A stretch of 40,110 bases of DNA from a virus. Its lineage: Duplodnaviria > Heunggongvirae > Uroviricota > Caudoviricetes. Position numbers and translations under genes: made by a program. Positions 8,285-33,885 of the stretch are shown here, in pieces (position 1 is the stretch's first letter; every line of letters starts with the position of its first letter). The notes under the pieces are model-generated. The model had not been told where the DNA came from. It searched no databases and saw nothing but the letters and a program-made list of their open reading frames with translations. The stretch lies in the IMG/VR virus record IMGVR_UViG_2897369580_000002; one strand, given 5' to 3'.

Positions 8285-8306
8285 AAACAAGGCCGCGAAA
8301 GCGGCC
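8281..8306 (-). terminator. rho-independent terminator ending the minus-strand structural transcript
   Basis: GGCCGC-gaaa-GCGGCC hairpin, followed on the minus strand by TTGTTTTTAA. Confidence 0.6.
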
Positions 8307-8307
8307 T

Positions 8308-8319
8308 GTGACATGTCAC
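8308..8319. repeat. 12-bp palindrome GTGACATGTCAC (copy A)
   Basis: Perfect palindrome; identical 12-mer also at 26008-26019 and 28282-28293. Confidence 0.7.
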
Positions 8320-8320
8320 G

Positions 8321-8881
8321 CTACATTGATATATGATTCATAAAGTAGCTTAAAGATTTACTTCCCAGAAAAGAAATTTCTTTTCCTGGATATGTCGCAA
8401 TAATTGAGCATGACTTATCCCCGTTAGAGGTAACAAATCCTGAATAACCTACTTGTTCTTTACCATTTTGTTGCTTGGCTAAAAAGTAGAGGTAGCTTAT
8501 CTTTTTGCCCTCTGGGTAAAACTCTGCCAAACCAGTATCGGTGATTGAATATTTTATTCTCCCGCCTTGAGTAACGTTTTCCATCTCAAGTTTAGCTATG
8601 TCTTTTCTGTTGTATTCAGCATTGATTTTCCTTTCGAAATCAATGTTGTTTTCAAATGAGTAGGAAGCAACAGTCTGAATAGATGGGAACACGTTTATCT
8701 GGATGCCCCCACAGTCGGCACAGGTATAAAGGTATGAATCAGATGGAATCCCCATAAAAGAAAACTGAGTTACCTTAAATTTATCGCTATCTCCAAAGTA
8801 TTGAAGTTCGCATTTAACATTTTGCCCTGCAAAAGAAAATGCAGACATCAATATTGAAACAAAAAATATAATTGCCTTCAT
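8321..8881 (-). CDS. secreted protein of unknown function (AT-rich, end of structural operon)
   Basis: ATG; signal peptide MKAIIFFVSILMSAFSFAG; AT-rich coding; directly follows the 849-aa internal protein. Confidence 0.55.
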   Translation of the reverse strand: MKAIIFFVSILMSAFSFAGQNVKCELQYFGDSDKFKVTQFSFMGIPSDSYLYTCADCGGIQINVFPSIQTVASYSFENNIDFERKINAEYNRKDIAKLEMENVTQGGRIKYSITDTGLAEFYPEGKKISYLYFLAKQQNGKEQVGYSGFVTSNGDKSCSIIATYPGKEISFLGSKSLSYFMNHISM

Positions 8882-8883
8882 TA

Positions 8884-11433
8884 TTATTTACCTAGCATGA
8901 ACTGCGATGGTGGGATCAGAAAGTCGTTCCCCTGCTCACGCTCAACACGGCGCTGATAACGCTCAAGAGAGCCTGGGTCAAGGGCATCTTGTATCCGGTT
9001 CAATATTAAACCATTCATCGCCGTACGAAGCCAGAACACGTTGAGGAATGGCGTATTGTCAAGTGCCGTGCGATACCAGTCACCCAAATCTGCATCCCCT
9101 CTCGTGGTCTGCTGGAGCAGCGTGATAATGCTGTCAGCGTTCGATGCTGCTGGCCCCATTAGCGACGTAACCGGCCCGGCCCCCATGCGGTTGACCTCAC
9201 CAAACATGAAGTCACCCAAGATGCCAAGACCGCCCCCCTGAGATGCGGCTGCGAGAAACGTCTTGGCATCTGCCGGGCGTGGTGTTTGCCCTTTCAGCAT
9301 GAGTTTTGACTGCATGGAGATATAACCAAACATAGTCGCCCAGACAAAGAGGTTTGCAGCACCAAGGAAAGCCCCCTTCCCGTTACGTAGCAGCGCATTC
9401 GTCAGCGATCCGGTTTTCGACTCACCAAGCCCAGCAGGAATATAACCACGCCCGAATACTTCGCGTCCTAGTACGTTCTGCATGAAGCTTGCAGTGAACG
9501 ATTTGTACTGACCAGCGAATCGTATTGCTTCCCCAGCCACCGTTCCTGGCACCGTGCCCATCTTCATAAACGCCTGCGTGCGATCGCCAGGCTCTGACAT
9601 GGCGATATTCAGACGGTCAAGGATGTAGCCGCGCAACTGCCCTTCCAATTGATCGCGTGCGTCAGCGATAGCGCGCTGCGTTGGTTTGATCCCCTTACTC
9701 TCTACATAACCGGCAATCACTTCGTCAGGCACGCCGCGGATGCCGCTGGTCGTCATGAACTTACGACCTTCGCTATCGGCCATGTCCATGTTGCGAAAAA
9801 TTTCCCACTCACGTTCGCCAATACCGTGCAGATCCAGCACGCGTCGCAGGTCTTCCGGTAGCCGCGCATGAGACTGGTCAGCATTCTTTGCAAGCCAGTT
9901 GGTTATCATCATGGCGTTGCTGTTGCGACCGCTCTCGGTCCAGAAGTTCATGAGGTTGTACTTAAAGAAAAGCTGCTGCGCGCGACCAAGCTTTCCATTC
10001 AGCGTGTCATCACCAGATATGCGCCGGATGATTTCCTGCGTCATGGAGTCGGAATAAACTCCGATAGAGGAAAGGATCTCTTTCTGCTCCGCGCTGTTGT
10101 AACGCGTGAAGCGGCCTCTCATAGCACCAAGCAACGCCTGCATAAAATTCTGCCCTTGGTAGCGCATCTCGGTAGCGGCGATAGGCACGTCGTTAAACGA
10201 TGAGATTACCGCGCCACCAAGTTGGCTCATACGCAACCAGCCGCGTACAGCCGCCGACGCATTGGCCCAGCCTACGCTGCCAGGAATATTTAGCGAGCCG
10301 TCAACCTGCGGCATTACGGTACGGTTAATGCGACGCACCTTCGTCATGTAGTCAGCCAACGCTGCCGGTCTTCCGGATTTGCTGATATCTTCAGCAATGG
10401 CGTCCGTCAGGTACTTAAACATGTTCTGTGGGTTAGTGCCCAGTACGCGCATCATGCCCGTTGTGCGGGCAGCGCTGTTTAAGCCACCAAACAGCGCTTC
10501 TCGCAGGCTGCCGGTGCCGAATTGCTGGTTGTACTCGTGCCACGAGATACCATCTTTGAAGTGCAAAATTCGCTCTTGGCTGGCGCGTTTAGCTGCGTTC
10601 GCCGATCCCTTAAAGCCATTCATCCAATCGGGCTTTTCAGATGTAAGATGCACGCCGGAAGCCAGCCCGTTATAAATGTTACGCATGAACTGCTCGCGGT
10701 CAGCCACGCCGTCAAAAGTGCGCTCATCAAGGCGCGGGAGAATAGCATTTCGCCATGCTTCATAACCTGCGGCGCGGATCTTCATGATGTCGTGTGACTG
10801 GCGCACTATATAGCCCGGCTCTTTGCGTATCCATGCCCCGGCGCGGTTCTCATCAATGCGCGCAGTTTCCTGCCATTTCATGATGATTTGTGCAGCGCTT
10901 ACGGATTGCTTTGTCATACCGTCAGTTGACTGCCCGCGCCCTATGCGCCACATTGCATCGGCAATTTCCCGGTCATTGCTGCCGCTGGCGATGAATTGCA
11001 CCAGCCCGGCACGGTCAAAATCGTAGTTGATACCGGAATGATACTTGCCGCGCAGTTGCGCCACCTCCGAAGATACCGACCGGCGGGCGCCGGTACGCGC
11101 ATCGTTGCGGCCAACCAGCATTGCTTCAAGCCCGATATCCGGGCGGTCTTTCCAGATAGTACGAAGCTCTCTAAGTCGTTGTGCGGCAATACGGGCGTCG
11201 ATTGCCTTATTGCGAGCCTCAATCTGTTTTGCCAGCATATCGGCATTGCTCAGTTCTTCCGCTGCGCGCATCGCGGCCTCTTCCAGAGACAGCGCCTCAT
11301 TGGTCGCCAGAATTCGCCTAGTGGTGTCGTTCATGTCACGCACCAGCGACTCCATCTCATCGGAAGAAAGCTCGCGACCAGCGGCAGCATTTACACTGCG
11401 CTCGCACTGCGTCAAAAATTCGTTTGCTGCCAT
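8884..11433 (-). CDS. large internal virion / ejection protein
   Basis: ORF-track start at 11436 is GTG; ATG at 11433 with RBS GGGGGA overlaps the stop of the upstream gene (ATGA); large mostly helical protein in the structural block. Confidence 0.6.
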   Translation of the reverse strand: MAANEFLTQCERSVNAAAGRELSSDEMESLVRDMNDTTRRILATNEALSLEEAAMRAAEELSNADMLAKQIEARNKAIDARIAAQRLRELRTIWKDRPDIGLEAMLVGRNDARTGARRSVSSEVAQLRGKYHSGINYDFDRAGLVQFIASGSNDREIADAMWRIGRGQSTDGMTKQSVSAAQIIMKWQETARIDENRAGAWIRKEPGYIVRQSHDIMKIRAAGYEAWRNAILPRLDERTFDGVADREQFMRNIYNGLASGVHLTSEKPDWMNGFKGSANAAKRASQERILHFKDGISWHEYNQQFGTGSLREALFGGLNSAARTTGMMRVLGTNPQNMFKYLTDAIAEDISKSGRPAALADYMTKVRRINRTVMPQVDGSLNIPGSVGWANASAAVRGWLRMSQLGGAVISSFNDVPIAATEMRYQGQNFMQALLGAMRGRFTRYNSAEQKEILSSIGVYSDSMTQEIIRRISGDDTLNGKLGRAQQLFFKYNLMNFWTESGRNSNAMMITNWLAKNADQSHARLPEDLRRVLDLHGIGEREWEIFRNMDMADSEGRKFMTTSGIRGVPDEVIAGYVESKGIKPTQRAIADARDQLEGQLRGYILDRLNIAMSEPGDRTQAFMKMGTVPGTVAGEAIRFAGQYKSFTASFMQNVLGREVFGRGYIPAGLGESKTGSLTNALLRNGKGAFLGAANLFVWATMFGYISMQSKLMLKGQTPRPADAKTFLAAASQGGGLGILGDFMFGEVNRMGAGPVTSLMGPAASNADSIITLLQQTTRGDADLGDWYRTALDNTPFLNVFWLRTAMNGLILNRIQDALDPGSLERYQRRVEREQGNDFLIPPSQFMLGK

Positions 11434-13130
11434 CACATCCCCCGGTTAATCATACAGGCGGCAAATGCCCGGAAAGCGTTGCTCATGCTATTGTCGCTGG
11501 CGTCGGCACGAATATCATTGAGTTTCTGGCGCAACGTGGTCGCAAGATCAGGGTTATCGACAGCGATATCGTCAAGCAGGGCGTTACTCAGGTTGAGCTC
11601 GTTATCAAGGTCTGCAGCGGCAGCGGTAATTTCATGATCTGCCTTTTGCGTTTCTTGATAAACCCGATCGGCTGTTTCGCTTGCTGGGCGAGCCGTTTCA
11701 TCAACCTGCCGTGCCGGGTTCTGTATGCGATGGATGGCGCGTTCACGCAGTGCTGGTTTGTGCAGTTCATAGAAGGGCTCAACATCTGGGCTACGTCCTT
11801 CCATCATGTGTGCCAGCGCAGCGCGATACGCCTGCTGGTTCACGTTCCAGTCAGCATCCCTGATGGCGCTTGCGGCAGTGCGAACTGCGCCAGCGACCGG
11901 CGACATCTGCATGCCGTCCAGGATCTGCTGCGCACGCTCGGAAATGGTGACTTTCAGGTCGTCGGGGATCTCGCCGCGGGAAATCTGAGACTGGCGCCAG
12001 CGCGCCTGCTCTGCTGTCGCGTTCTGCTCCAGCGATGTGTTGATCTCCTGATTGCGTGCAGCGATGGCGTCTTTCTCGGCCTGAATCTCTTTCAGTGCCC
12101 TAGAGCGCGCATCCTTAAACTTCATCCGCTGCCCCTGATACTTTTTGGTGCGCTGCTGCAGCGTCGCATCAAGCGAGTCAGCATGACGTTGATTAGCCGC
12201 AAGCTCGGCACGCAGGTCGGCAACGTTACCGATCTGCCCGCTCTGTAACTCCTGCTGGCGCGCCATATAGTCAGGAACCACGTCGTCATAAGCTCGGCTG
12301 TATGCGTAGCTCTCCGCTTCACTGGAAATGGCCGCCGCCAGATCTGCGTTAGCGCCAACCTCAGGGATATTCACGCCCGCCGGAATGTTGTCAGGCGTTA
12401 TCACTGGGGTTGGCTGCGCATCGCCAGAAAACGCCGGGGACTCTCCCGTTGCAGCATCGGGAACGCGACGCGGTCGCACGATATCGGCGATAAGGCCGCC
12501 GCCGGCATGCATTAGACCGCCAGCCATCGTGTTAAAGAAAGTACTTTCCAACGCGTTGCTATAGGTGAAGTCGTCACCTTCCGCCGCCGCTGCCAGCCCG
12601 GTAAGCGGCACGGTCACCAACGCCTGCGCTGCCCCCATGCGTGCACCAGCAACAAATCGCTCGCCAAATCGGCCAAGCACAGAAGCCGCCTTTGCTTCTC
12701 CAGCGAACGGAACCAGCGCCAGCGCCACGTTACCAGGATCTGCCATTGAACCAGCTAGGCTGGCTGCGAAATTAAGCGGCGTGGCTACCCACCCGCTCGG
12801 TGCCGACATCGCGATCTGCTGGCGTGCCAGAGAATCTTTGCGTTCGGCAATAACATGATCGAGAAAAGCCTGCGTAACGCCAGAATCTGGCACGTTTATG
12901 CTCTTTACGCCGTACTGCTTCAGGAGCTCATCCGCTTCCTGCTTACTGATAACTGTAGAGTTTGGGTCATTCGCCAGCGAGTCGGCCTGCGCAAAGCGGT
13001 AGCCGGACATGACCGGCCCCTCTTCAAATCCCTGCTTAAGGGAAGAAAGCAGCGATTCGCCAAGCCCTGCTGGCGCGTTGCCAATTGGCTGGTTAATTCC
13101 CTGTCCCGGATCATCTGTGTAAATTGGCAT
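11433..13130 (-). CDS. internal virion / ejection protein
   Basis: ATG start overlapping the upstream stop (TAACATG); Ala/Gly-rich N-terminal part and charged helical C-terminal part. Confidence 0.55.
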   Translation of the reverse strand: MPIYTDDPGQGINQPIGNAPAGLGESLLSSLKQGFEEGPVMSGYRFAQADSLANDPNSTVISKQEADELLKQYGVKSINVPDSGVTQAFLDHVIAERKDSLARQQIAMSAPSGWVATPLNFAASLAGSMADPGNVALALVPFAGEAKAASVLGRFGERFVAGARMGAAQALVTVPLTGLAAAAEGDDFTYSNALESTFFNTMAGGLMHAGGGLIADIVRPRRVPDAATGESPAFSGDAQPTPVITPDNIPAGVNIPEVGANADLAAAISSEAESYAYSRAYDDVVPDYMARQQELQSGQIGNVADLRAELAANQRHADSLDATLQQRTKKYQGQRMKFKDARSRALKEIQAEKDAIAARNQEINTSLEQNATAEQARWRQSQISRGEIPDDLKVTISERAQQILDGMQMSPVAGAVRTAASAIRDADWNVNQQAYRAALAHMMEGRSPDVEPFYELHKPALRERAIHRIQNPARQVDETARPASETADRVYQETQKADHEITAAAADLDNELNLSNALLDDIAVDNPDLATTLRQKLNDIRADASDNSMSNAFRAFAACMINRGM

Positions 13131-13131
13131 G

Positions 13132-15753
13132 TTATCGTCCTGATTGCTGGCCGTTCTGGAAAATGTTAATCAGGTTGTCGCGCTGACTTTCTGCGCTGTA
13201 TTCCTTAGACTGTCCGGGAGTATATTTCACCGGAGTATCAATGAACTTGGTAATGCTGTTCCATACTGATCGGTTGGTTGTTCCCAGTTTCGCCAGATCG
13301 TTGAACGGCACCGTAATCGGGTTGCCGTCGGCACCGTTGACGATCAGCCCGTTGAGCATCAGGGTAAGTCCTGTTTCGTCGCTGTTGGTAACCCACTGCG
13401 CATTATCACGAATGCGGGAGATACTCTGCTCACGGTTGACCTCATCAGGTAGCCTTGGGTCACCAATAAGCGGCATAATCTGATCTGCTGACAGGTTTTT
13501 CAGATACGCATTGGCACCATCGTTAACGTCACGAATATCTATCCCTGCACGCTTAGGTAGCCGCCAAGTGCCATTGGTCTGGTACTGCTCGCCGAGGATG
13601 TCCTGATACGCCTGTTTTGCTGCATCAGACGCCGACATTCCGCGCTGCATGTTGATGTAAGTAAGTCGTTTTCCCTGCTCGTTGAAGTTATTCCACACGG
13701 CAGTGCCACCAGGCTGAACAACCATCGTGCCAGCAAAATCTTTCGATTGGTCATTCCATGACGAGTCGGCGCTATCCGCGTCGGTTTTCTCAAGACTGCC
13801 GCGTAAGTCAGCAGTTTTAACGCTACGGTTTTGCCAGAGCGCATTTGCCGCGCGCGGGTTCTCGGTAGCCATGACAACCTGCAACGCAGGATAAGCGCTC
13901 TTCTGAACCTGCTGCATCACCTGATCCGAGTATTTGCCGAACGACTGCGCCACCGACTGAATGGCCTTTACGCTAGATTCCTGCGTGTTGTCAATACGCT
14001 GCAGTACGTCGTTGACCATGGACTCCGGTAAAACTTTTTTGCTCATTATCCCCAGGCGGTCTTTTTCAGACTGTATGCGGGAAACTAGGTATTCACCAGA
14101 TGAAGGGTCATTCAGGTACTGCTGGAATGCAGCCTGCACAACCGGAGAGTTTTGTTGCAGCCATGCCCCCGGATCCGCTTCCCGCGCCTTCAGTACCTGC
14201 CCAAGCTTGACCTTTGCCGATGCATAAAGCTCTGCTTTGTATTTAAAGTCAGGGTCGTTTTCCTGCGGTGCCATTGCCTGCACGGCGGCGGTACCCTGCT
14301 GGACGTTGCCCTGCATAATGGTCTGATAAACAGGTTGTAGCGTCATTGCCTGCTGGTATTGCTGGAAGGTTTTTTCCATCTGCAGGCGCTCGGCAGGCGC
14401 TGCCTGAAGCGGCATAACGGCGGCCCATTCGTGCGCTGAAATAGGCGTCACCTGCTTACCGGCCTCAATTTTGGATAGGTCGTCCTGCATTCGACTCTGT
14501 AGCGCAACGCGACCGGCTGAAGCCTGCATGTCGTACATGCCAGCAACCTTGCTCATCATCTGCGACTTTTTGTCCGGACTCATGGCGTTCCAGAATGGCT
14601 GTGCGATGAGGTTTTCCATCGTCGCAGATCCAGGAATAGCTCCAGCACTGCCAGTTACTTTTGCCACATAATTGCGCGTCTCGTCGTATGGGATAGCTGC
14701 GGCAAACTGGGCGTTACTGACTTCGCCTGTGCGCGGATCGCCAATCTGTTTAATCCAGCCGTCAACCTTTCCTGGGCCAGCGTTATAGGCAGCTACTGCC
14801 AGAACCGGGTTATTGTCGTATTTCTTCATCTGCGCGCCGAAATAAGCTTGCCCCAAGCGGGCATTATAGCGCGGGTCATTCAACCATTTATCTCGGTCCC
14901 ACGGCACGCCAGCAAGGCGGGCAGCTTCGGGGCCAGTATCTTCCGTCACCTGCGCTACGCCAACAGCGCCTTTTGGCGACACCAGAGGTGTTCCGTCCTT
15001 TCCGTACTGATTTCCGCCACTCTCCTGCCAGATTATTGCAGAGAATAACTGCGCCTCACTCGGTGTATCGGTTACCTCAATCTTGCCGTTCGGACCCATC
15101 ATCTGTTGATACATCGGCACATACCACGCCTCCGCCGCACCGTTCGCGGCATTCTCGCGCCACGAAACCCAGTTCTGTTCGATCTCTTCCTGACTCTGGC
15201 CGTGGGCTTCGCCGTAAGCGATGATGCTATGATATGCCTTCAATCCTGCCTGGTTTGCCATTGTCGGGTTACGGAACTGCATCGATAGGTTTTTTAGTGT
15301 CGCATCCTGCATATCCGCCTCATACTGGCGAACCTGTCCTATTTCGTACCTCCCGGCCTGCGTAGTGAACTGAATGCGCTGCTGCTGCGCCTGCTGCATG
15401 AAAGCATTACGAGCCTGTTCATCCGGCAGCGACATAGCCAGTTGTTCGACCTGAGCATCAAACTGCTGCGTATACTCATGGCCTTTTCCAATAGCATTTT
15501 TCCCTTTCAGGTTAAGCAATCCTGTTTCAGGATTATTCAGCAGATCGCTGCTTATCTGACTGAGGTTAAGAGATGCCTCCTGAGCCAGAGCGATATTGGC
15601 ACGCTGTTTTGCCTGCCCCAAAACATCAATTGCCTCTGTCCCTGCCCGAACAAAAGCATCACCAATACCTGGCTGAGAAAACGTCTGCAAGCCTGCTGAC
15701 TGAACTCCACGACTCTCAACCTGACGTCCGGATACTGTTGGTACGACTGGCAT
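13132..15753 (-). CDS. internal virion protein with lytic transglycosylase (SLT) domain
   Basis: SLT signature IIWQESGGNQYG ... AYNAGPGKV; start corrected to ATG at 15753 (RBS GGAGG, TAATG overlap with upstream stop) rather than 15828. Confidence 0.75.
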   Translation of the reverse strand: MPVVPTVSGRQVESRGVQSAGLQTFSQPGIGDAFVRAGTEAIDVLGQAKQRANIALAQEASLNLSQISSDLLNNPETGLLNLKGKNAIGKGHEYTQQFDAQVEQLAMSLPDEQARNAFMQQAQQQRIQFTTQAGRYEIGQVRQYEADMQDATLKNLSMQFRNPTMANQAGLKAYHSIIAYGEAHGQSQEEIEQNWVSWRENAANGAAEAWYVPMYQQMMGPNGKIEVTDTPSEAQLFSAIIWQESGGNQYGKDGTPLVSPKGAVGVAQVTEDTGPEAARLAGVPWDRDKWLNDPRYNARLGQAYFGAQMKKYDNNPVLAVAAYNAGPGKVDGWIKQIGDPRTGEVSNAQFAAAIPYDETRNYVAKVTGSAGAIPGSATMENLIAQPFWNAMSPDKKSQMMSKVAGMYDMQASAGRVALQSRMQDDLSKIEAGKQVTPISAHEWAAVMPLQAAPAERLQMEKTFQQYQQAMTLQPVYQTIMQGNVQQGTAAVQAMAPQENDPDFKYKAELYASAKVKLGQVLKAREADPGAWLQQNSPVVQAAFQQYLNDPSSGEYLVSRIQSEKDRLGIMSKKVLPESMVNDVLQRIDNTQESSVKAIQSVAQSFGKYSDQVMQQVQKSAYPALQVVMATENPRAANALWQNRSVKTADLRGSLEKTDADSADSSWNDQSKDFAGTMVVQPGGTAVWNNFNEQGKRLTYINMQRGMSASDAAKQAYQDILGEQYQTNGTWRLPKRAGIDIRDVNDGANAYLKNLSADQIMPLIGDPRLPDEVNREQSISRIRDNAQWVTNSDETGLTLMLNGLIVNGADGNPITVPFNDLAKLGTTNRSVWNSITKFIDTPVKYTPGQSKEYSAESQRDNLINIFQNGQQSGR

Positions 15754-20161: not shown

Positions 20162-20211
20162 ATACACTCCTGCAATAAAGGGGCCGAAGCCCCTTGTCTC
20201 ATCCGCGAGGC

Positions 20212-20547: not shown

Positions 20548-20557
20548 CAATATCACC

Positions 20558-20995
20558 TTAACCAGTTACTTTTGAGCGGATCGGATACGGCGTATTGGCA
20601 TCAACATCAAGACTGATACCAGCAGTGAATTCGCCAGCCGTTAGTGGGCCAGTTGCGACGGAGTAGTTAACACGCAGATATCGCTGAACACCGGCAGGCA
20701 CCTTTGCAGAAACAACTCGTTTACCTGCTGTCAGGGCGGTCTTTGCCAGTGCGCCACTATCATAAATAGTGGTCCATGAGCTGTTATCCTCACTCGTCTG
20801 CAACTGGATGTTTACAGTTGCATCACCGCTTGCCGCGGCGGCTGTGTTAACCAGCGCCCAAAACTCAAGCGGGTAACCCACGCCGATATCACGACGTTTT
20901 CCGTCAATTGGACCGAGATCGATTACGTCAGTAGAAGCCGCGGTATTCGTAACCGCCTGAGCTTCGGAGAACATCAACAGTTTGTCGGTGATCAT
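20558..20995 (-). CDS. capsid-associated protein (decoration candidate)
   Basis: ATG with RBS GGAG; directly downstream of major capsid gene; 145 aa. Confidence 0.4.
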   Translation of the reverse strand: MITDKLLMFSEAQAVTNTAASTDVIDLGPIDGKRRDIGVGYPLEFWALVNTAAAASGDATVNIQLQTSEDNSSWTTIYDSGALAKTALTAGKRVVSAKVPAGVQRYLRVNYSVATGPLTAGEFTAGISLDVDANTPYPIRSKVTG

Positions 20996-21046
20996 CTTCT
21001 TTCTCCATTAGTGGGTCTGTTACGACCCACAGGTTAATAACAGGCG

Positions 21047-22039
21047 TTACACCACGCGGGCTTCTGTTTCCAGAAGCGCATCAGTCTCACGGATTGGTAC
21101 ACCACGGAATGAAGTCCACCACTCGCCTTCTGTCTCTTTTACGCTGATCGCCAGAGATGTTTTCTCCAGAGATTGCAGATCAAGCGCCTGGCCTACAGTG
21201 CGGTTCATGTAGAACACCGGGCTGCCCATGCCACGGTTTGGAATGCGATGCAGTGCTTTAACCATCAACTTCGCAATATTTGCTGCAGAGGAAGGTTCTG
21301 AAAGATTGCTGACATCGATGTTTGCAATGCGAACAACATAACGCCAGTCACGGAGAGCAAGCCCGTTGTCCCATTTGTAATGGGTACGGTAGCCTTCGTA
21401 CTTGCCGCCATCCGCATCTTTCAGTGTCACCTGGCCTTTATCTTCCATCTGGATGCCAGCCTTCTGCCCTTTCGGGAAGATGCCATGCACGGTGTTTTCG
21501 CCCCACACCACTAACCAGATTGAGGTGTTATCTGTACCCGTGCCACCAGCATCAATGATGTTCTGAGCATTACCCGCAGACAGGCTGGAATAGCGGGAGG
21601 ACAGTCCCATAAACTGCTGAGGGTTAACGCTGGAATCACCATAAAACAGCGTCTGCGCCATCTGCTGATTCATCGCTTCAATAAATGCGCGGTCTTCAGA
21701 CAGGCGGAATTCGGCGGTATTGCCGTTCAGATCAGCCAGTGACTTATCGACTTCAGCATAGGTTTCCAGCATGCCAACGGAATCGGTTACCTGCACTGTG
21801 GTTGATTTGCTTGGCTGTACGCCATAGTTCAGCAAACGCCAGGTAGCTGAAGGTAAACCAGAACGAATGGTGGTTCGGTGTCCGGTAGGAAGGTTCCCTT
21901 CGACAAAAGGCATATCCTGAAGGATCGGGTTAGTTTGACCGAGAAGCTCGATAATCTTATCGACTTTCCCGTTTGGATCGACGCGCTTACCCCAGTCAGC
22001 CAGCGTTAGCGCAGTTAAGCCTTTAACAGCCATTGTCAT
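21047..22039 (-). CDS. major capsid protein (HK97-fold candidate)
   Basis: 330 aa, ATG with RBS AGAGAGGAA; follows scaffold-like gene; order terminase-portal-scaffold-capsid. Confidence 0.75.
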   Translation of the reverse strand: MTMAVKGLTALTLADWGKRVDPNGKVDKIIELLGQTNPILQDMPFVEGNLPTGHRTTIRSGLPSATWRLLNYGVQPSKSTTVQVTDSVGMLETYAEVDKSLADLNGNTAEFRLSEDRAFIEAMNQQMAQTLFYGDSSVNPQQFMGLSSRYSSLSAGNAQNIIDAGGTGTDNTSIWLVVWGENTVHGIFPKGQKAGIQMEDKGQVTLKDADGGKYEGYRTHYKWDNGLALRDWRYVVRIANIDVSNLSEPSSAANIAKLMVKALHRIPNRGMGSPVFYMNRTVGQALDLQSLEKTSLAISVKETEGEWWTSFRGVPIRETDALLETEARVV

Positions 22040-22047
22040 TTCCTCTC

Positions 22048-22743
22048 TTATTTGCCATAGAGCACTTCGGCCGCACTACGCTGGCCTTCATTACCACCGG
22101 TGACCATGCCATCTTCAGACATCGCCTTTCCGATTTTCACGAACGTCTTGACCAGATCAGGGTGATTACCCAGTCCGGTGGTGTTCAGATATTCTTTGAG
22201 CTCAGGTGTCCCGAACTGGTCAAGCGCACGCTGCGCGGCGCTAAGGTTAGAAATCAACTTGTCGCCACCGATTTCTTTGTCAGCTTTTACATCCGCAGCC
22301 CACTGCTCGGTTGTTTTCTGCCAGGCTTCTGCCTGGCGCTGCTGAACACCTGCCAGAATCTTCGGATAAGCATCAACCAGCTTTTGCGCTTGCTCGTTGG
22401 TCAGGTTAAGTTCTCGCGCCACCGGCTCGAATTCCTTCAACGCTTCTGTATCCAGCTCTACGCCTTCGGCAGCCTGAAACTCGTACTTCTCAGGCGCACC
22501 CTCTGGTTTATCGCCGTCCTTTTTTTCATCCTGCTTATCGTTTTCAGGCTTTTTGTCATCAGCAGGTTTATCGCCATCAGCAACAGGTTGTGGCTTATCA
22601 CCTTCCTGTTGTGATGGATCACCAACTGGAGCAGGGTTATCACCTGCAGGAGCTGACGGTTCTGACGCAGCCGGAGCTGCTCCACCATCGACTGGTTGCT
22701 CATTGCAAAGACGGCTATACAGCAAACGCTCAAATAAATTCAT
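22048..22743 (-). CDS. scaffolding protein
   Basis: ATG at 22743 with RBS AGGAG (ORF-track start at 22749 is GTG); acidic low-complexity region with repeated GDKP; helical C-terminus. Confidence 0.65.
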   Translation of the reverse strand: MNLFERLLYSRLCNEQPVDGGAAPAASEPSAPAGDNPAPVGDPSQQEGDKPQPVADGDKPADDKKPENDKQDEKKDGDKPEGAPEKYEFQAAEGVELDTEALKEFEPVARELNLTNEQAQKLVDAYPKILAGVQQRQAEAWQKTTEQWAADVKADKEIGGDKLISNLSAAQRALDQFGTPELKEYLNTTGLGNHPDLVKTFVKIGKAMSEDGMVTGGNEGQRSAAEVLYGK

Positions 22744-22745
22744 GA

Positions 22746-23042
22746 TCACTCCTGTTCACTGGCCTCTTTGGCCATCTTCAAATACTGTTCAGGGCAATGC
22801 GCCATAACGCGCTGAAACAGTTCCAGCGCCAGATTGCGTTGCCCCTCATTAAATGCCATTGCCATAGCGTCCATCGGTGAGATAGCGGAAAACACACGGC
22901 CTTTCTCCAGCACCGACCAGACAACGCGACGCCCTTGTTCACTGCTCATGACAAAGCGAATGTCATCAATTTCACGCTGCGCCATGTCACGTTGCTTACG
23001 GGCGTTTTCTTCTTTCAGTTGATCGTCTTCGTAATCTGTCAT
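22746..23042 (-). CDS. hypothetical head-module protein
   Basis: ATG overlapping portal stop; 98 aa. Confidence 0.45.
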   Translation of the reverse strand: MTDYEDDQLKEENARKQRDMAQREIDDIRFVMSSEQGRRVVWSVLEKGRVFSAISPMDAMAMAFNEGQRNLALELFQRVMAHCPEQYLKMAKEASEQE

Positions 23043-24718
23043 TGTGATTGCCCACCCTGACCACTAACTGCATTCGCCATAGCTGTCAAAACACTCGGAT
23101 CCGAAGTTTTAGCTTCGCTTAGCGTCTTGGCACCCTGTGCCGCCGCCATCCCCACCGCCATCATTTGTTGTTGCTGTTGCTGCTGTGCCCGTTGCTGGCG
23201 AGCCTGCTCAACCTGTTCCTGCGGAACAATGACGGTTGGAGACACTCCGGACATATCAGCGAATGCATCGATCGCCTGATCAACGTTGAGTTTGTCGAGA
23301 GCTTCTGGTTTCGCTTGCGCAAGTTGACCAATGAAGTTAACCGTGGACGCCAGACTGGACAGGCCGATAGACTTCTGCGCCTGAGCCATGACGGAAATGT
23401 ATTCGACCTTCAGGGGCATACCTTCCATCACGTCTGGCGGTGGCGGCAGCATGTTTTTACGCACCATCATCGAGAAAGCGCGGTCAATGAGAGGATTAAG
23501 ACATTCGTCGTTCAGGCGCTCCAGAACCGGCCCCAACATCAGAAGTTTTTCTTCTTTCATTTCGATCACCGCTTCAACAGGCATCGAGCGGGTATTGATG
23601 TTCTGCAACATCATGAACAGATCGACAAAGTAGGCGCTGTTAATGATTTGACGAGTGTCCTGAATGTCTGCTACCAAATCTGCTGTACTGGGGTTAACCA
23701 GATAAGCAGGCCTGAAGCCATCCTGACCAGTAATCTGATCGATATACGTGATGTCGCCAGGAAGAAGGGAGGCGCGCTGATTCTTGAGGGAAGTCGGAGC
23801 AACCATCGGCGGATTGGTGGCTTTATCAATCAACTGCGACTTGCGCTTCTGGAGAAGCTGCAATGCCTTAACAGGTCCAAGCGCCAGCATACCCGGGCAT
23901 GATGATCCATAAACATCTTCGCCGTTAACTTCCCAGCGCGGAGCCATAATTGGAAACTCATCAAATCCGGACTCACGCAACAACTTGTCGTTATCGCCAC
24001 CAACCTCGTAATAAACCGATTTGAATGGCTTGTTCTTGCTATCCAGCTTCGATGTATCGCGGTCAATGTTCGGGTAAACCGAATGCATCACGTCAATCCA
24101 CTTCTCGTAGGTGCCGCTTTCCCACATGCTTTTTACGGATTCGCTGACGTTATTTAGCCCGAACTCCTGAACAAGCTGACGAACAGTCATAGAGAACTTG
24201 CGAAAACAGGTGTCCACACTGCCACGAGGTGAGTTAGCCAGGTAGTAACTGCCTATCGGGAATGGCATTGTGCGAATGATGTCCTCGTCATCCTCCAGCA
24301 CCGCCATTGCACCAGTGCTGTATGTGCCGAGGCTTCCGTATAACTGCGGAAGAGACTGGTAGAGATTCGACTTATTGAACATATCGTTCATGCGGTTCTG
24401 CACCGCCTCGAGCCACAACTTAACAGGACCATAATCCATCATTTCAGGATCTGGCGTAGCCAGGCGAAACCACGGACGCGCAGGGCTTGTGATGCCTGAC
24501 ATCATGCCGCTGGCGAGAGTGCGCGCCGCCATAGTCCCGGTCGAATCAATAATGCGTGTATTGCGTCGATCGTTACGGTTGACCTCAGAAGTCAGAAAGC
24601 GGGAACCACGCGGGTTGATGTAATCACTCAACTCGCGCCAGTGCGGCTCGAACGACTGACGCTCGCTTTCAAGTTGTGCGAACTGTTTGTTCAATCGCTC
24701 TTTAGTTGTTTCCGCCAT
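23039..24718 (-). CDS. portal protein
   Basis: 559 aa directly downstream of terminase region; poly-Gln tract near C-terminus; ATG with RBS GGAG. Confidence 0.8.
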   Translation of the reverse strand: MAETTKERLNKQFAQLESERQSFEPHWRELSDYINPRGSRFLTSEVNRNDRRNTRIIDSTGTMAARTLASGMMSGITSPARPWFRLATPDPEMMDYGPVKLWLEAVQNRMNDMFNKSNLYQSLPQLYGSLGTYSTGAMAVLEDDEDIIRTMPFPIGSYYLANSPRGSVDTCFRKFSMTVRQLVQEFGLNNVSESVKSMWESGTYEKWIDVMHSVYPNIDRDTSKLDSKNKPFKSVYYEVGGDNDKLLRESGFDEFPIMAPRWEVNGEDVYGSSCPGMLALGPVKALQLLQKRKSQLIDKATNPPMVAPTSLKNQRASLLPGDITYIDQITGQDGFRPAYLVNPSTADLVADIQDTRQIINSAYFVDLFMMLQNINTRSMPVEAVIEMKEEKLLMLGPVLERLNDECLNPLIDRAFSMMVRKNMLPPPPDVMEGMPLKVEYISVMAQAQKSIGLSSLASTVNFIGQLAQAKPEALDKLNVDQAIDAFADMSGVSPTVIVPQEQVEQARQQRAQQQQQQQMMAVGMAAAQGAKTLSEAKTSDPSVLTAMANAVSGQGGQSQ

Positions 24719-24732
24719 TTCAATGACTCCGG

Positions 24733-24939
24733 TTACTGACCAAGCAGCGTTTTACCGCTGGTATTAGCGGTTGATGTGTCGCCCTGAGAACCGGTAAGCA
24801 GCGTAGAACTACGACCAGCAGCAGCGCGACGGCGACGTGTTTCTTCGTCGCGGGCATCAACAACGGCGGCATCCTGCTCCTGTGGTGCTGCCTGAACTTC
24901 TGGTGTTGCAGGCACTGATGGTGAGCTACCCATGCACAT
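24733..24939 (-). CDS. small hydrophilic protein upstream of portal
   Basis: ATG; shares the 12-nt initiation-region sequence CGGAGTCATTGA with the portal gene. Confidence 0.35.
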   Translation of the reverse strand: MCMGSSPSVPATPEVQAAPQEQDAAVVDARDEETRRRRAAAGRSSTLLTGSQGDTSTANTSGKTLLGQ

Positions 24940-25029
24940 ATCAATGACTCCGTACGCAATTAAATTATTACCAATTTAACCACATATGATTTATTTATCG
25001 TAGAAGGTTGACATTTGACGCGCGAATTA

Positions 25030-25044
25030 TTACCTTTCAGGTAA
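25030..25044. promoter_or_regulatory. palindrome TTACC-N5-GGTAA (copy 4)
   Basis: ATTACCTTTCAGGTAAC at 25029-25045; TTGACA hexamer at 25008-25013 just upstream. Confidence 0.55.
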
Positions 25045-25366
25045 CTAAAGAGCTCATTCCGGCTACTAACCTGACTGGCTTGTCGTTAAATTGAACAGGT
25101 GGAGTGAGATTTTATTTTGAGCAGTACGGCGTATGGCACATGCGCCGATAGCGGTCTGGATACGTTTAAGGGGCACCCTCCCTTGCTCGGGCAAACGAAC
25201 CAGGTAGCCGGAATGTGCAAGTCGAGCGGTTTTATTCCGCGCACGGGGATTCACCATCCTGGCGATTCGGTGTGACGCCTCGGAAGAGACGAGAGTACAA
25301 CGATGAGAGCATTTATGGAGCCGCGACAAAGTGTGGCGCCTTAACAGGCTAAGTGCTCTCAGCGTT

Positions 25367-25443
25367 GTGGTATTAGCTCAGTTGGACAGAGCAACCGCCT
25401 TCTAAGCGGTTGGTCGCAGGTTCGAATCCTGCATGCCACGCCA
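25367..25443 (+). tRNA. tRNA-Arg (anticodon TCT), phage-encoded
   Basis: Hand-folded cloverleaf: acceptor GTGGTAT/ATGCCAC, D-arm GCTC..GAGC, anticodon stem ACCGC/GCGGT with loop CTTCTAA, T-arm GCAGG-TTCGAAT-CCTGC, discriminator G, encoded CCA. Confidence 0.9.
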
Positions 25444-25486
25444 GAATCACGCCTAAGGACCGTGATACCAGAAGTTCCAGGTGCTT

Positions 25487-25528
25487 GGCGGTGATGGTTT
25501 CCCTTGAAGGACTATCACCGCCCTTTTT
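25487..25528 (+). terminator. rho-independent terminator downstream of tRNA
   Basis: GGCGGTGAT ... ATCACCGCC stem followed by CTTTTT. Confidence 0.6.
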
Positions 25529-25606
25529 ACAGCAGGACGCCATTGCGATGACTTCATGCTGTAAACCCGTACAGCCACGGAAGGCATAACTCATTGCTTC
25601 CAGTTC

Positions 25607-25630
25607 GCCCGGTTCGCCGGGCATTTTTTT
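25607..25630 (+). terminator. terminator/attenuator hairpin immediately upstream of the 25642 gene
   Basis: GCCCGG-ttc-GCCGGGC followed by ATTTTTTT; RBS AAGGTGAG begins right after the T-run. Confidence 0.5.
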
Positions 25631-25641
25631 AAGGTGAGATT

Positions 25642-26013
25642 ATGAACGACCAGCAAATCGAAAAAGAAATCGTTGAGAAAGGCAAAACGGCACCGCGCGT
25701 TACGCCAGACCATATCGAAGGCATTATTGCTCAGGAGGCATATTTCACAGCAGAAGATGGTGCCTTTGGCAAAGCCATAAAAGCGAAACATACTGGCGGA
25801 GAGGTAAACTACCAGCCGCACGAATCACTTTCTCTGCTGACGTTCTGCGTCCTGGTGCTGCGCAACGGCTTCACCGTCACCGGAGAGAGCGCCTGTGCAA
25901 GCCAGGAAAACTTTGATGCAGAAATTGGTCGGAAGATTGCCCGGCAGAATGCTGTAAACAAAATCTGGATGCTCGAAGGTTACTTGCTGAAGCAGAAGCT
26001 AAGCGAGCAATAA
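25642..26013 (+). CDS. hypothetical phage protein (cargo gene between terminase and portal)
   Basis: ATG with RBS AAGGTGAG; 123 aa; opposite orientation to flanking late genes; own terminator. Confidence 0.6.
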   Translation: MNDQQIEKEIVEKGKTAPRVTPDHIEGIIAQEAYFTAEDGAFGKAIKAKHTGGEVNYQPHESLSLLTFCVLVLRNGFTVTGESACASQENFDAEIGRKIARQNAVNKIWMLEGYLLKQKLSEQ

Positions 26014-26019
26014 CACCGT
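26008..26019. repeat. 12-bp palindrome GTGACATGTCAC (copy B)
   Basis: Overlaps the stop codon of the 25642 gene; lies just beyond the 3' end of the terminase large-subunit gene. Confidence 0.7.
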
Positions 26020-26023
26020 GACA

Positions 26024-26050
26024 TGTCACAAACAGCCAGCCGATGAGCTG
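26024..26050 (+). terminator. rho-independent terminator
   Basis: AGCCAGC-cgatg-AGCTGGCT followed by TTGTTTT. Confidence 0.65.
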
Positions 26051-26103
26051 GCTTTGTTTTATCCTCATCAGAGGATATCAACGACATTATCCCCACCAGC
26101 GGA

Positions 26104-27579
26104 TTAAGCATATGGATCGTAATCTGTGATGGCCTTGCCTTGCTGGTTCTGCTGCCCGGGAATTCGCAGACGCTTCGACACAGGGAACGCAAACGTCAGC
26201 AGTAGCGCATCGCCTTTACCAGGAGAACGCCCAAGCCGCTCCTTGATATCTTCCTTCGGTTCGATAACGATTTTACCGTCCACTCGAACTTTGTACTCTG
26301 CCGCAGACAGGTCGTCCGCTGTTTCCTGGTCATCCAGCATGCCGCCCAGCCTCAGCCATGTCTTGCATGAGTTGAACATCTCCCCACGCTTGTTGAGCAT
26401 CTGCGGGTCAGTAGACGCGCCACCGAACGGAACAAGTTGCCATGTACGACCCCAGCCATCACCGATTGACTTCAGACCAGTTCCGTAACCGAAGTCGATG
26501 AACACCGCGTCAGCCTGGTACTGGTCTTCAAAGTCAGCGATACGCTTCGCCATAATCAGATCGTCGGTGGTCTTGTTACCAGTCCATAGCACCTTACTGT
26601 GCAGCCCCTGCCGCAGGTATATCACCGCGTCATCAACGCCTGAATATGCCGGGTCAACACCGATTATCACCGGAGCATGCGCCACCTGCGCAGCGGTTAC
26701 CACCCGTTTCATTGCCTCATCAGTAAGACCGGTAGGGATAAACTGCAATTCAGATGCATCAGGGAATATGCCGCGCACACGGATTTTAACGAAGTCGCTG
26801 TCTTCCCCGTAGTCATCAACCCATTTCTGCAACTGCTGTTTGTTAGTGCCTTCCACCGTCCGGCTGTCAATCTGCGCAGTTTTCCAGCGGTGTTTATATT
26901 TGCGGAAACATTCACGGAATCGCCCGGTATTACGCGTCGGGTTTCCGAACGCCACCCAGATAATCTCAGTGTCTTCGTCCGTTAGCGCACCTTCGGCAAC
27001 TTCCCACACCAGATCCGCAATATTCGACGCTTCATCGAATACCACGATGATGCGTTTGCGCTCGTTGTGTAGTCCGGCGAATGCCTCAGTGTTGTGCTCA
27101 GACCAGGGGATTGCGTCAGCTCGCCACCGCTTGTCGTGTCCAGGGTCATTGCTGTACATCGCGGTAGCTGTACAGGTAAACCAGTCTTTCGTGATAGCAA
27201 GGTTTGACCACTTGATAATTTCCGGCCAGGTCTTCGTTCGTAGCTGGTTGTCGGTGTTGGCGGTCACCACGACCTTACAATCCTCGCAAGTGGACATGCC
27301 CCAGTTGATCAGCATTGAGATGAATGCGGATTTACCAATACCGTGACCCGAAGCACGTGCCAGCATAAGCGGCTGATAGCGCGTCTCTGGATTCTGCAGG
27401 TGATCACGTATCTCTCGGAACGCATCAGCCTGCCACTTACGTGGGCCGGTAGCATGTGCCAGTTCAGTCCCCTCTTCCCCCCACGGGAACGCATAGAGGG
27501 CATAGCCAAGCGGATCGTGAGTGAACCCTGCAATATCCTCGATCAACTGCTCTTCAGGAGATAACGCTGTATCTGTCAC
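26104..27579 (-). CDS. terminase large subunit
   Basis: 491 aa; GTG start overlapping small-subunit stop (GTGA); ATPase P-loop-like GHGIGKS and C-terminal nuclease region. Confidence 0.85.
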   Translation of the reverse strand: MTDTALSPEEQLIEDIAGFTHDPLGYALYAFPWGEEGTELAHATGPRKWQADAFREIRDHLQNPETRYQPLMLARASGHGIGKSAFISMLINWGMSTCEDCKVVVTANTDNQLRTKTWPEIIKWSNLAITKDWFTCTATAMYSNDPGHDKRWRADAIPWSEHNTEAFAGLHNERKRIIVVFDEASNIADLVWEVAEGALTDEDTEIIWVAFGNPTRNTGRFRECFRKYKHRWKTAQIDSRTVEGTNKQQLQKWVDDYGEDSDFVKIRVRGIFPDASELQFIPTGLTDEAMKRVVTAAQVAHAPVIIGVDPAYSGVDDAVIYLRQGLHSKVLWTGNKTTDDLIMAKRIADFEDQYQADAVFIDFGYGTGLKSIGDGWGRTWQLVPFGGASTDPQMLNKRGEMFNSCKTWLRLGGMLDDQETADDLSAAEYKVRVDGKIVIEPKEDIKERLGRSPGKGDALLLTFAFPVSKRLRIPGQQNQQGKAITDYDPYA

Positions 27580-28172
27580 TGATTACCATCCTGACGTTCT
27601 TTGAGTCGCTTCCTGGCTGCTGCTATGCGATCAGCAATTGTCACATTCACATTAACATCCAGACGTTCTTTGAACGCGTTGACATCAACATGCTTACCAA
27701 TCAGCTCAAGGTTCTTCACCTTGTCAGGCCATTTAATTTTTTTGAGGATTGTCTCTATCGAATCCTCGTTCATGTTCATGATGGTCGATGACAGATCAAA
27801 GCCACTAAGCGTAGTGCGCCAGATTTTCGGCCACTCACGGATTGGTTTAAGGCTCCCATCGTCGTTGAGGATGTCGATCACGTCCATCTGGTCGATCTCC
27901 ACCAGGCGCATGAGAACGTAATCAGCACTGACGCGCATTCGTTTGTTGCGCTCCTCCATCAACTCGGCAATCCGTTTTTGAATGCGTTCATCGCGCATCA
28001 TGACGCTGGCTTTAACTGCCGCTGTATTTGGGGAGAATCCTGCGTTAATCGCTGCCTGAGTCTGGTTTTCAGGCGTTTTGATGTATGACTGGCAATAAGC
28101 CTCCTGCATTGCTGTTAGTGGCTTAAATTGCGTTGATTTGCGTTTATAGGTTTTAGGTTCAGCAGGCATCAT
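27576..28172 (-). CDS. terminase small subunit
   Basis: Small-terminase-like helix-turn-helix region (AMQEAYCQSYIK...QTQAAINAGFSPNTAAVKAS); start placed at internal ATGATG (28172/28169) because the ORF-track N-terminal 32 codons are encoded by palindromic GGTAATAGTTACC repeats; alternative start 28268. Confidence 0.7.
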   Translation of the reverse strand: MMPAEPKTYKRKSTQFKPLTAMQEAYCQSYIKTPENQTQAAINAGFSPNTAAVKASVMMRDERIQKRIAELMEERNKRMRVSADYVLMRLVEIDQMDVIDILNDDGSLKPIREWPKIWRTTLSGFDLSSTIMNMNEDSIETILKKIKWPDKVKNLELIGKHVDVNAFKERLDVNVNVTIADRIAAARKRLKERQDGNQ

Positions 28173-28189
28173 AACCACCGTGGTAATAG

Positions 28190-28204
28190 TTACCGTTTTG
28201 GTAA
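28190..28204. promoter_or_regulatory. palindrome TTACC-N5-GGTAA (copy 5) within nested GGTAATAGT(T)ACC repeats
   Basis: GTTACCGTTTTGGTAAT at 28189-28205; flanked by GGTAATAGTTACC (28182-28194) and GGTAATAGTACC (28200-28211). Confidence 0.5.
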
Positions 28205-28281
28205 TAGTACCATGCAAAATAAAGCCGCCATAGTTGGCGGCAGTATCCAAAACCGTCAAATTCATCATGCATAATCTACTC

Positions 28282-28293
28282 GTGACATGTCAC
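28282..28293. repeat. 12-bp palindrome GTGACATGTCAC (copy C)
   Basis: Overlaps stop codon of the 28290-28637 gene, upstream of terminase small subunit. Confidence 0.7.
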
Positions 28294-33837: not shown

Positions 33838-33868
33838 TCACCCATAAGGTAACAAAAATCAAGGATAG

Positions 33869-33883: not shown

Positions 33884-33885
33884 AT

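Follow-up and report, generated by a model that had tools for sequence, protein, structure and literature searches.

A GTGAC-N2-GTCAC palindrome at transcription-unit ends of an epsilon15/phiV10-type phage, a candidate operator of a ribbon-helix-helix regulator

Three copies of a 12-base palindrome at unit boundaries

The window, i.e. the whole stretch of 40,110 nucleotides that was analysed, is an epsilon15/phiV10-type (Uetakevirus) temperate phage. It contains exactly three exact copies of the palindrome GTGACATGTCAC, named sites 1 to 3 (Table 1), compared to 0.01 expected, and none of 100 shuffles of the window contains three copies or more. When two mismatches are allowed, a single extra site is found, at 22979, which is within chance. 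The window shuffles, together with the counts across related loci given below, rule out a chance origin of the three copies.

Along the transcript that is terminated, each of the three sites precedes an intrinsic terminator by 0-40 nt. The units closed by these terminators are the early-right unit, the cargo transcript converging on terS-terL, and the main structural unit. The terminator that follows site 1 is kept in epsilon15 and Tyrion, and the true start of terS is probably 28172, not 28268. Site 2 begins 4 nt past the stop of a plus-strand, Sf6-gp66-like cargo gene (25642-26013), convergent with terS-terL, and is read in both directions. For the plus-strand cargo transcript, the adjoining hairpin makes a good terminator. 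In the late (minus) direction this shared hairpin has only a weak T-tract, and the search gave no terminator for terS-terL.

The motif is not part of the terminator hairpins, as it lies outside their stems and remains fixed while their sequences vary. No conserved promoter or pause element was found to accompany the sites; a weak, non-conserved promoter-like match overlaps site 1, which is followed by the terminator. No known RNA family was found at the three sites in Rfam. Elsewhere in the window, the Rfam matches are isrK, C4 and a tRNA only.

These results are in agreement with part of the original prediction, which had described three identical copies with differing flanks, one at the end of the structural operon and the other two bracketing the terminase genes. 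Parts of the placement have to be corrected: the middle copy, given as 26008-26019, is shifted by 10 positions and, while it does lie just beyond the 3' end of terL, it is separated by the 4-nt gap from the cargo gene stop that it was said to overlap. Likewise, between terS and the copy described as just upstream of it, a terminator and a CI-type operator intervene.

Table 1. Coordinates of the palindrome copies and neighbouring features in the window
Feature	Position	Strand	Description
Candidate cognate regulator	28290..28637	-	115 aa as called; PHROG 536
Site 1, GTGACATGTCAC	28282..28293	.	Holds the TGA stop (28290-28292) of the regulator gene; end of early-right transcription unit
Intrinsic terminator, GCCGCCAACTATGGCGGC + TTTATTTTGC	28224..28241	-	40 nt downstream of site 1, between regulator gene and terS
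CI-type operator	28190-28204		Between site 1 and terS, beside terminator 28241-28224
Site 2, GTGACATGTCAC	26018..26029	.	75 nt beyond terL stop (26104)
Hairpin adjoining site 2	26034..26053	+	Between site 2 and terL stop
Site 3, GTGACATGTCAC	8308..8319	.	Between last late-operon gene stop (8321) and its terminator
Intrinsic terminator, AGGCCGCTTTCGCGGCCT + TGTTTTTAAC	8290..8307	-	Directly 3' of site 3, end of structural operon

Conservation of the motif and its pairing with a candidate regulator gene

In phiV10, epsilon15 and Tyrion, the corresponding three places are occupied by the same 12-mer, within unrelated flanks. In 77 of the 79 evaluable Uetakevirus loci, site 1 overlaps the stop codon of the regulator gene or follows it by no more than 40 nt. 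The distance of site 2 from the terL end is 31 or 78 nt regardless of the cargo that comes next, and about a quarter of related loci have lost the site or retain a decayed form; as it stays at the end of terL in loci devoid of the gp66-like gene, it does not belong to that cargo cassette. Of 69 related loci, 57 have site 3, and the terminator hairpin that it immediately precedes varies widely in sequence. Altogether, a terminator is adjacent to 101 of 141 Uetakevirus sites, compared to 34 of 628 random positions. This adjacency does not hold outside Uetakeviruses (0/58 P2-like, 2/108 N15-like and 0/8 Vibrio sites), so that a role in boundary control may be lineage-specific.

The palindrome of this phage is one form of a more general motif, GTGAC-N2-GTCAC, of which 389 exact copies are present in 4.1 Mb of related loci, compared to 3.9 expected, while its one-mismatch forms are at background level (105 vs 117 expected). 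The enrichment is restricted to the 2-bp spacer, spacers of 0, 1 and 3-7 bp being not enriched. Everted and composition-matched control palindromes are essentially at background, with the exception of CACTG-N2-CAGTG (16 copies in P2-like loci), and lambda, used as a single control genome devoid of the regulator gene, has no site. The flanks of the 12-mer carry about 0.2 bits per position, which rules out a longer repeat unit surrounding it. The central dinucleotide depends on the lineage (AT, TG, GC, CG or AC), as does the beta-strand predicted for the regulator. This palindrome is real and under strong selection. The count in related phages called for by the original prediction clearly shows the motif to be neither missing from relatives nor present at chance frequency. 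The 12-mer was not found in the literature, and the ZX5 paper does not treat it.

The candidate regulator has homologues of mostly 112 aa (range 112-115 aa) and is composed of a basic N-terminal arm, a ribbon-helix-helix (RHH) core and a Cys-rich (CxxC...C...C) C-terminal tail. Its structure, modelled as a monomer without DNA, is predicted to adopt a strand-helix-helix fold matching RHH proteins; the best structural matches are classical RHH repressors, and MatP (3vea) is also among the neighbours. The putative Zn-binding, Cys-rich tail is modelled at low confidence. At the sequence level, no match was found in Pfam, RHH models included, even at E up to 5, nor in the PDB, and nothing significant in NCBIfam, where the sole sub-threshold match is the LexA-regulated protein PRK11675 (E 0.049). 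No match to Q proteins was found in these three databases either.

The family (PHROG 536) includes epsilon15 gp49, phiV10 p55 and N15 gp46, the latter not to be confused with the 'gp46' of the telomere-phage paper, in which the numbering differs and this name designates the cB repressor. It comprises about 200 clusters at 50% identity, which lack a model in Pfam and NCBIfam and bear the annotation 'hypothetical' or 'transcriptional regulator'. They come from prophages of Escherichia, Salmonella, Klebsiella, Citrobacter, Enterobacter and Yersinia, Vibrio phages and N15-type phage-plasmids.

Gene and motif were considered linked when the motif was on the stop codon of the gene or within 40 nt after it. 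They are paired in 49/49 N15-like phage-plasmid loci and in 50/50 P2-like loci, as well as in locus L190. A more distant subfamily was fetched with a query at about 1e-12 from the profile, its members being 41-45% identical to that query; one exact copy or paired one-mismatch copies (GTGAC-CG-GTCAC type) are found at the gene end in 4 of its 6 evaluable loci. The pairing also recurs in Vibrio siphophages, and the Vibrio phage K233, whose protein is 35% identical, has three sites compared to 0.035 expected. Searches for further distant lineages, with P0275 against genome contigs and P0288 against viral contigs, gave no match. Part of this co-occurrence is inevitable, one site being located on the gene itself; in loci L181-184, the motif is found 10 nt past a separate stop, and coding constraint therefore does not explain it. 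Loci within a lineage are not independent, which reduces the effective sample to about 5-6 lineages. Gene and site are co-inherited, as one module, in at least five lineages, among them mutually unrelated temperate phages.

A candidate operator and the alternatives

We propose that GTGAC-N2-GTCAC is the cognate DNA-binding site of the RHH protein, which would modulate stopping or read-through at unit ends; we give this reading a probability of about 0.6. The protein would sit on the palindrome as a dimer, its conserved N-terminal arm and flanking residues reading the invariant GTGAC half-sites and its variable beta-ribbon facing the central dinucleotide, which differs among lineages. In this module, which gene and site form together, one copy of the motif is found at the stop codon of the gene or shortly behind it. 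Bound at the three unit boundaries, the protein would modulate the stopping of RNA polymerase versus its read-through, and such a control would link early to late transcription and insulate cargo islands.

That this protein binds the motif is most likely, in view of the co-occurrence of gene and site, and the location of the sites 0-40 nt upstream of terminators indicates that the motif probably controls stopping or read-through at unit ends. The bound protein might act as a roadblock or termination aid or, in the opposite direction, as an antiterminator, and it might affect the timing of late genes. It is unlikely to be a universal late-gene switch, since separate late activators are found in N15 (Q-like gp40), P2-like phages (Ogr-like gp51) and L269 (PHROG 836). 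A tentative and rather unlikely extension is that this RHH protein with its Cys tail, positioned within a few bp of intrinsic terminators on their upstream side, decides between stopping and read-through of RNA polymerase, or bridges the three sites into loops as MatP does, in a previously undescribed operon-boundary system that depends on DNA sites.

The motif could alternatively be a promoter element, as GTGACA is a near-consensus -35 on both strands and could belong to late or antisense promoters, whether or not the regulator acts as their activator. Scans find GTGACA-18-CATGAT pointing at terS and GTGACA-18-TATGAT at site 3 on the plus strand, and GTGACA-17-TAAATT can be read by eye at site 1 in epsilon15 and Tyrion. 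The -10-like hexamers are however not conserved among relatives or lineages, promoter-like matches are not above shuffles in number, and transcription from the site 1 candidate would begin within a strong terminator or right at it. Furthermore, only 13-19 nt separate the motif copies of the Vibrio phage and N15 from a start codon, too little for a promoter to fit, and we consider this explanation improbable. The same copies, which lie just upstream of ribosome-binding sites, could instead point to an action in RNA, with a GUGA-loop-UCAC hairpin stacking on the terminator or acting as an RNA-binding site and affecting termination, processing or translation. A 4-bp hairpin is indeed predicted directly 5' of the terminator stem in the three transcripts of the window, but it reaches only -1.2 kcal/mol, no better than shuffles. 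Perfect two-fold symmetry, with 5-nt arms and a free 2-nt centre, points to selection by a DNA-binding dimer rather than for an RNA stem, transcripts cross site 2 in either direction, and the associated protein has a predicted dsDNA-binding fold, making an RNA element very improbable. As for packaging, sites 1 and 2 do bracket terS-terL and one of the Vibrio phage sites is 19 nt before the terS start codon, which speaks for pac recognition sites. A single pac site is nevertheless hard to reconcile with three identical sites over 20 kb, many relatives do without site 2, and N15 and P2-like phages are cos phages in which the motif-gene pair is far from the terminase genes; a packaging role is thus hardly credible.

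Another reading takes the palindrome to be primarily a recombination boundary, i.e. a linker or a nuclease or recombinase target for module exchange or cargo insertion. Among 844 HSP ends, 103 fall within the 210 nt around the three sites (0.5% of the window), in many relatives similarity ends at 8320-8323, the cargo after sites 1 and 2 is variable, and the sequence of L078 diverges exactly at the palindrome centre. On the other hand, a 12-bp sequence is not long enough for homologous exchange to be efficient, breakpoints of equal strength are found at motif-free gene boundaries (e.g. 28620, 8880, 30950 and 25640), and no dedicated recombinase co-occurs with the motif, which is in a conserved, non-mosaic context in N15-like and P2-like loci, including inside repA. 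As a conserved island between variable modules is an expected crossover point whatever its function, we read the coincidence as a by-product of the sites sitting at module ends and give this explanation little weight. Finally, a host factor could bind the sites, either MatP, on matS-like sequences, or another palindrome binder such as SlmA. The half-sites GTGAC/GTCAC are presumably those of matS (GTGACRNYGTCAC), and we take all the hosts seen here (Escherichia, Salmonella, Klebsiella, Yersinia, Vibrio) to belong to MatP-containing groups. All sites are nevertheless 12 bp long, unlike the 13-bp consensus GTGACRNYGTCAC, so that an identity with canonical matS sites is not supported, and the spacer is strictly 2 bp: N2 spacing accounts for 59-142 copies in each of the three large lineage sets and for 8 in the small Vibrio set, compared to 0-1 per set for the matS spacing (N3). 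The motif also tracks a phage gene, at that gene's end, through five lineages, its central dinucleotide follows the phage lineage and not the host, and lambda lacks any site, all of which renders a host factor quite improbable.

Among the three candidates of the original prediction, the binding site of a phage regulator is therefore the one that the comparative evidence favours, and the 28290-28637 protein can be named as its candidate reader. The recombination boundary retains the coincidence with breakpoints without any sign that the motif causes exchange, and the packaging site is not supported.

Under the rather unlikely extension above, the early, terminase, structural and tailspike units would be chained into a late programme that needs no Q- or N-type factor, by a module common to podo-, sipho- and myovirus temperate phages and phage-plasmids, with the specificity for the centre retuned. 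We found no assigned mechanism of late-gene control in epsilon15/phiV10-type phages, which are in use as reporter and typing phages. Their layout, from CI-type operator to genes, GTGAC site and terminator, suggests how units are separated or linked. A protein family with only a generic label also gains a concrete candidate DNA target, the evolution of RHH specificity could be studied in a small natural system, half-sites that stay invariant around a centre that changes with the lineage, and the motif is a practical landmark of module boundaries for annotating or engineering these phages.

Comparison with known systems

The CI-type operators of Uetakeviruses (ATTACC-N5-GGTAAT, annotated as 'repressor' sites in epsilon15) are likewise dispersed palindromes at unit boundaries of the same genomes (before terS, gp3/portal and tailspike). 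They are however a different palindrome, TTACC-N5-GGTAA, so that the motif is not the prophage repressor operator, and they mark the starts of units and the immunity region, whereas the GTGAC motif marks ends: in the window, sites of the TTACC-N5-GGTAA type are found in the immunity region at 33838-33900, where no GTGAC motif is found even with 2 mismatches. In parB-parS and sopB-sopC, a cis site is also found directly downstream of the gene of its binder, with more copies elsewhere. A partition function is nevertheless not implied for the phage pair, which has no ParA partner and single 12-mers instead of arrays, in a phage that integrates.

MatP-matS, the organiser of the Ter macrodomain in E. 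coli, shares with the phage pair a GTGAC/GTCAC palindrome, an RHH reader (predicted in the phage) and sites that are few, single and dispersed, not arranged as operator arrays. It differs by its 13-bp site with a 3-bp centre, where that of the phage motif is strictly 2 bp, and by MatP itself, a chromosomal protein with a four-helix bundle and a coiled coil but no Cys-rich tail, which organises DNA and not transcription; no sequence similarity between MatP and the phage protein is detectable. Like the lambdoid Q gene, the regulator gene is the last early-right gene, directly before the terminator and the late genes, with a DNA site just upstream of that terminator. The fold is however unrelated to that of Q, there are three sites and not one, no promoter or sigma-dependent pause element is found here, and N15 carries both the Q-like gp40 and the RHH family.

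The operators of classical RHH repressors (P22 Arc, Mnt, CopG, omega, MetJ and type II antitoxins) overlap promoters, usually upstream of their own operon, whereas in the phage the gene has its site at its 3' terminus, on the stop codon and near terminators, and the phage protein, which no Pfam RHH model matches, is extended by a basic N-terminal arm and a Cys-rich tail. As proposed for the phage pair, these pairs nevertheless associate small RHH dimers with short palindromes, their genes adjoin their sites, and their proteins are the best structural matches to the phage protein model.

The palindrome and its neighbourhood in the window

The window represents an epsilon15/phiV10-type (Uetakevirus) temperate podovirus, whose late genes lie on the minus strand. 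The palindrome GTGACATGTCAC, of the general form GTGAC-N2-GTCAC, is present exactly three times, where shuffled sequences predict 0.01 copies, and allowing two mismatches adds a single further site, at chance level. These results confirm the original prediction of three identical copies with differing flanks, the latter being unrelated. The middle coordinate had been misplaced by 10, and this copy begins beyond the cargo-gene stop codon that it was said to overlap.

Sites of the palindrome and other features of the window
Feature	Position (nt)	Strand	Remark
Site 1	28282-28293		contains the TGA stop codon of the 115-aa ORF
Site 2	26018-26029		past terL and the hairpin below; starts 4 nt beyond the cargo-gene stop
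Site 3	8308-8319		between the last late gene and the late-gene terminator
115-aa ORF	28290-28637	minus	candidate regulator
Intrinsic terminator	28241-28224		past site 1
terS start, as called mechanically	28268
terS start, probable	28172		ATG; 198-aa product
Cargo gene	25642-26013	plus
Hairpin	26034-26053		good terminator for the convergent cargo transcript only
Late-gene terminator	8307-8290		adjoins site 3
TTACC-N5-GGTAA, 11 copies	5726-5740, 6107-6121, 7159-7173, 25030-25044, 28190-28204, 31517-31531, 31579-31593, 33838-33852, 33886-33900, 34598-34612, 34661-34675		CI-type operators; copy at 28190-28204 precedes terS
LexA-box-like CTGTATAAATATACAG	5780-5795		perfect; upstream of the tailspike gene
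Tailspike gene	3159-5621	minus
isrK sRNA and C4 antisense RNA	6158-6343		Rfam; just upstream of the antirepressor gene
Bro-N/Ant antirepressor gene	6391-7086
tRNA-Arg(TCT)	25367-25443	plus	variable cargo region

Past site 1, the intrinsic terminator is followed by a CI-type operator and then by terS. The mechanically called terS ORF encloses both elements; comparison with epsilon15 and Tyrion indicates that translation probably starts at the later ATG. The prophage repressor operators are a different palindrome, TTACC-N5-GGTAA, which matches the "repressor" binding sites annotated in the epsilon15 record, and identity of the 12-mer with them is therefore ruled out. Outside the immunity region, TTACC-N5-GGTAA lies directly before terS, gp3/portal, the tailspike gene and the ant island, which suggests that CI controls the late units directly or acts as a roadblock to them. 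The placements of operator, motif and terminator therefore define a unit layout: CI-type operator, genes, GTGAC motif, terminator.

Other elements lie nearby. The LexA-box-like sequence stands beside a CI-type operator. The isrK/C4 pair points to a P1/N15-like antisense control of anti-immunity, and the plus-strand antirepressor operon terminates at the terminator adjoining site 3. Between terL and the portal gene, the variable cargo region holds, besides the tRNA, an Sf6 gp66-like gene (PF13876).

Conservation among Uetakeviruses

Epsilon15 (Salmonella), Tyrion (Enterobacter) and phiV10 each carry the 12-mer at the three corresponding positions, in DNA that is otherwise only about 78-83% identical or unrelated. 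The phiV10 GenBank record is cut inside site 1 (39101-39104 plus 1-8); joined across the record ends, the site reads GTGACATGTTAC, with one mismatch, and nearly all close relatives differ from it.

Site 1 is intact in 77 of the 79 evaluable IMG/VR relatives, and site 3 is found in 57/69 loci, with many different terminator hairpins behind it. Site 2 lies a constant 31 or 78 nt past terL, irrespective of the cargo that follows; roughly one related locus in four has lost it or shows it with a single mismatch. A terminator accompanies 101 of 141 Uetakevirus sites, as against 34 of 628 random positions, and, in the direction of the terminated transcript, the site invariably precedes the hairpin.

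The sequence that follows site 1 is variable. In three loci (L063, L064 and L078), a LexA box (TACTGTTTAAATATACAGTA) and a UmuD-like gene replace the terminator/terS leader, about 10 to 80 nt past the site, and in some 30 others a small extra ORF begins 10 nt past the motif. In L078, the left half of site 2 alone remains (12890-12915; TTGTGACAT joined to TTAAAAAAATGCCCGG), and identity to other relatives breaks off right at the centre of the palindrome, apparently because the gp66-like gene has been deleted.

The candidate regulator and the motif in other lineages

The 115-aa protein is a homologue of phiV10 p55 and epsilon15 gp49. It has no family in Pfam or NCBIfam and no sequence match in the PDB; PHROG 536 labels it "transcriptional regulator". 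Its family is small (204 representatives at 50% identity), with members named at source "hypothetical protein", "uncharacterised protein" or "phage protein", and the alignment displays a basic N-terminal arm that is conserved, followed by a strand-helix-helix core and a CxxC...C...C tail.

Distant homologues occur in unrelated phage types, each with GTGAC-N2-GTCAC. Over the 4.1 Mb of fetched loci, exact forms number 389 (3.9 expected) and one-mismatch forms 105 (117 expected). The motif is thus neither absent from relatives nor at chance frequency, and the observation itself is solid, with wide conservation. Only the 2-bp spacer is enriched, with a lineage-specific central dinucleotide (AT, TG, GC, CG or AC). 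Of the three copies in N15, one is on the gp46 stop codon and is kept in 49/49 N15-like loci. Yersinia P2-like phages carry one copy on the stop codon or 10 nt past it (50/50 loci), and Vibrio phage K233 has three, one of them 19 nt upstream of the terS start codon. In a further subfamily, four of six evaluable loci have, within 40 nt of the stop codon, either an exact GTGAC-CG-GTCAC or two copies with one mismatch each. A different phage type (L065), whose protein is 84% identical, lacks a site at the regulator gene end and has three copies elsewhere, two of them at gene ends, one of these immediately ahead of a terminator.

The further two sites of N15 (33237-33248 and 28550-28561) have the same sequence as the gp46 one, GTGACTGGTCAC, with one in inverted orientation. 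One falls within the repA coding sequence and recurs in 45/49 N15-like loci, these being all the loci with enough upstream flank to cover it; the second is between genes 33 and 32, with a terminator downstream. In L189, whose homologue shares 62% identity with the window protein, the GTGAC motif is missing after the regulator stop codon; a CI-operator-type palindrome, ATTACCGCGCCGGTAAT, is found there (1 to 22 nt past it), with a copy of GTGACATGTCAC 2.9 kb further downstream. Alongside the 12-bp sites, a few GTGAC-N3-GTCAC sequences of 13 bp, which have matS spacing, occur in the Vibrio phage (L085, 19491-19503) and in three loci of a distant subfamily (L264, L267 and L270, GTGACCGCGTCAC; L267 additionally has GTGACACCGTCAC). 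Lambda contains no GTGAC-N2-GTCAC and two GTGAC-N1-GTCAC, where about 0.05 are expected.

A putative regulator-operator module

The simplest account is that the motif and the 115-aa protein could form a regulator-operator module. From their co-occurrence and the fold, we infer that a dimeric ribbon-helix-helix protein would bind the 12-bp palindrome, one site being held at the 3' end of the gene for this regulator, an arrangement that would have the two inherited together. In Uetakeviruses, the association with terminators and the constant upstream side of the hairpin suggest that the protein governs whether transcription stops or reads through where units end, and it might do so by either helping or suppressing termination. 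Since the other lineages compared do not show this association with terminators, and several of them carry their own late activators, the protein is unlikely to be a universal late switch.

The sites could alternatively be recombination boundaries, as originally proposed. They do fall at mosaic breakpoints, and L078 diverges at the very centre of its site 2 palindrome, but gene boundaries devoid of the motif are breakpoints just as often and the motif is also found in non-mosaic contexts; the coincidence is here treated as a consequence of position instead. At sites 1 and 3, GTGACA can be read as the -35 hexamer of promoter-like matches, which would make the motif a promoter element, but these matches are not conserved. 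As an RNA hairpin, the motif is too weak to convince, and a packaging role, the other original suggestion considered here, fits poorly with its presence in cos phages. That the sites are canonical matS, as in the MatP/matS system, is excluded by the spacing, only the 2-bp spacer being enriched; binding of a 12-mer by MatP itself would be a less likely reading.

The 12-mer was not found in the literature searched, and it is unannotated in the epsilon15, phiV10 and Tyrion records, as are N15's own three sites in its record. The putative regulator-operator module is a fresh instance of a familiar type, a phage regulator with its palindromic site, made unusual by the placement on the gene's stop codon, the placement beside terminators and the composite architecture of the protein.
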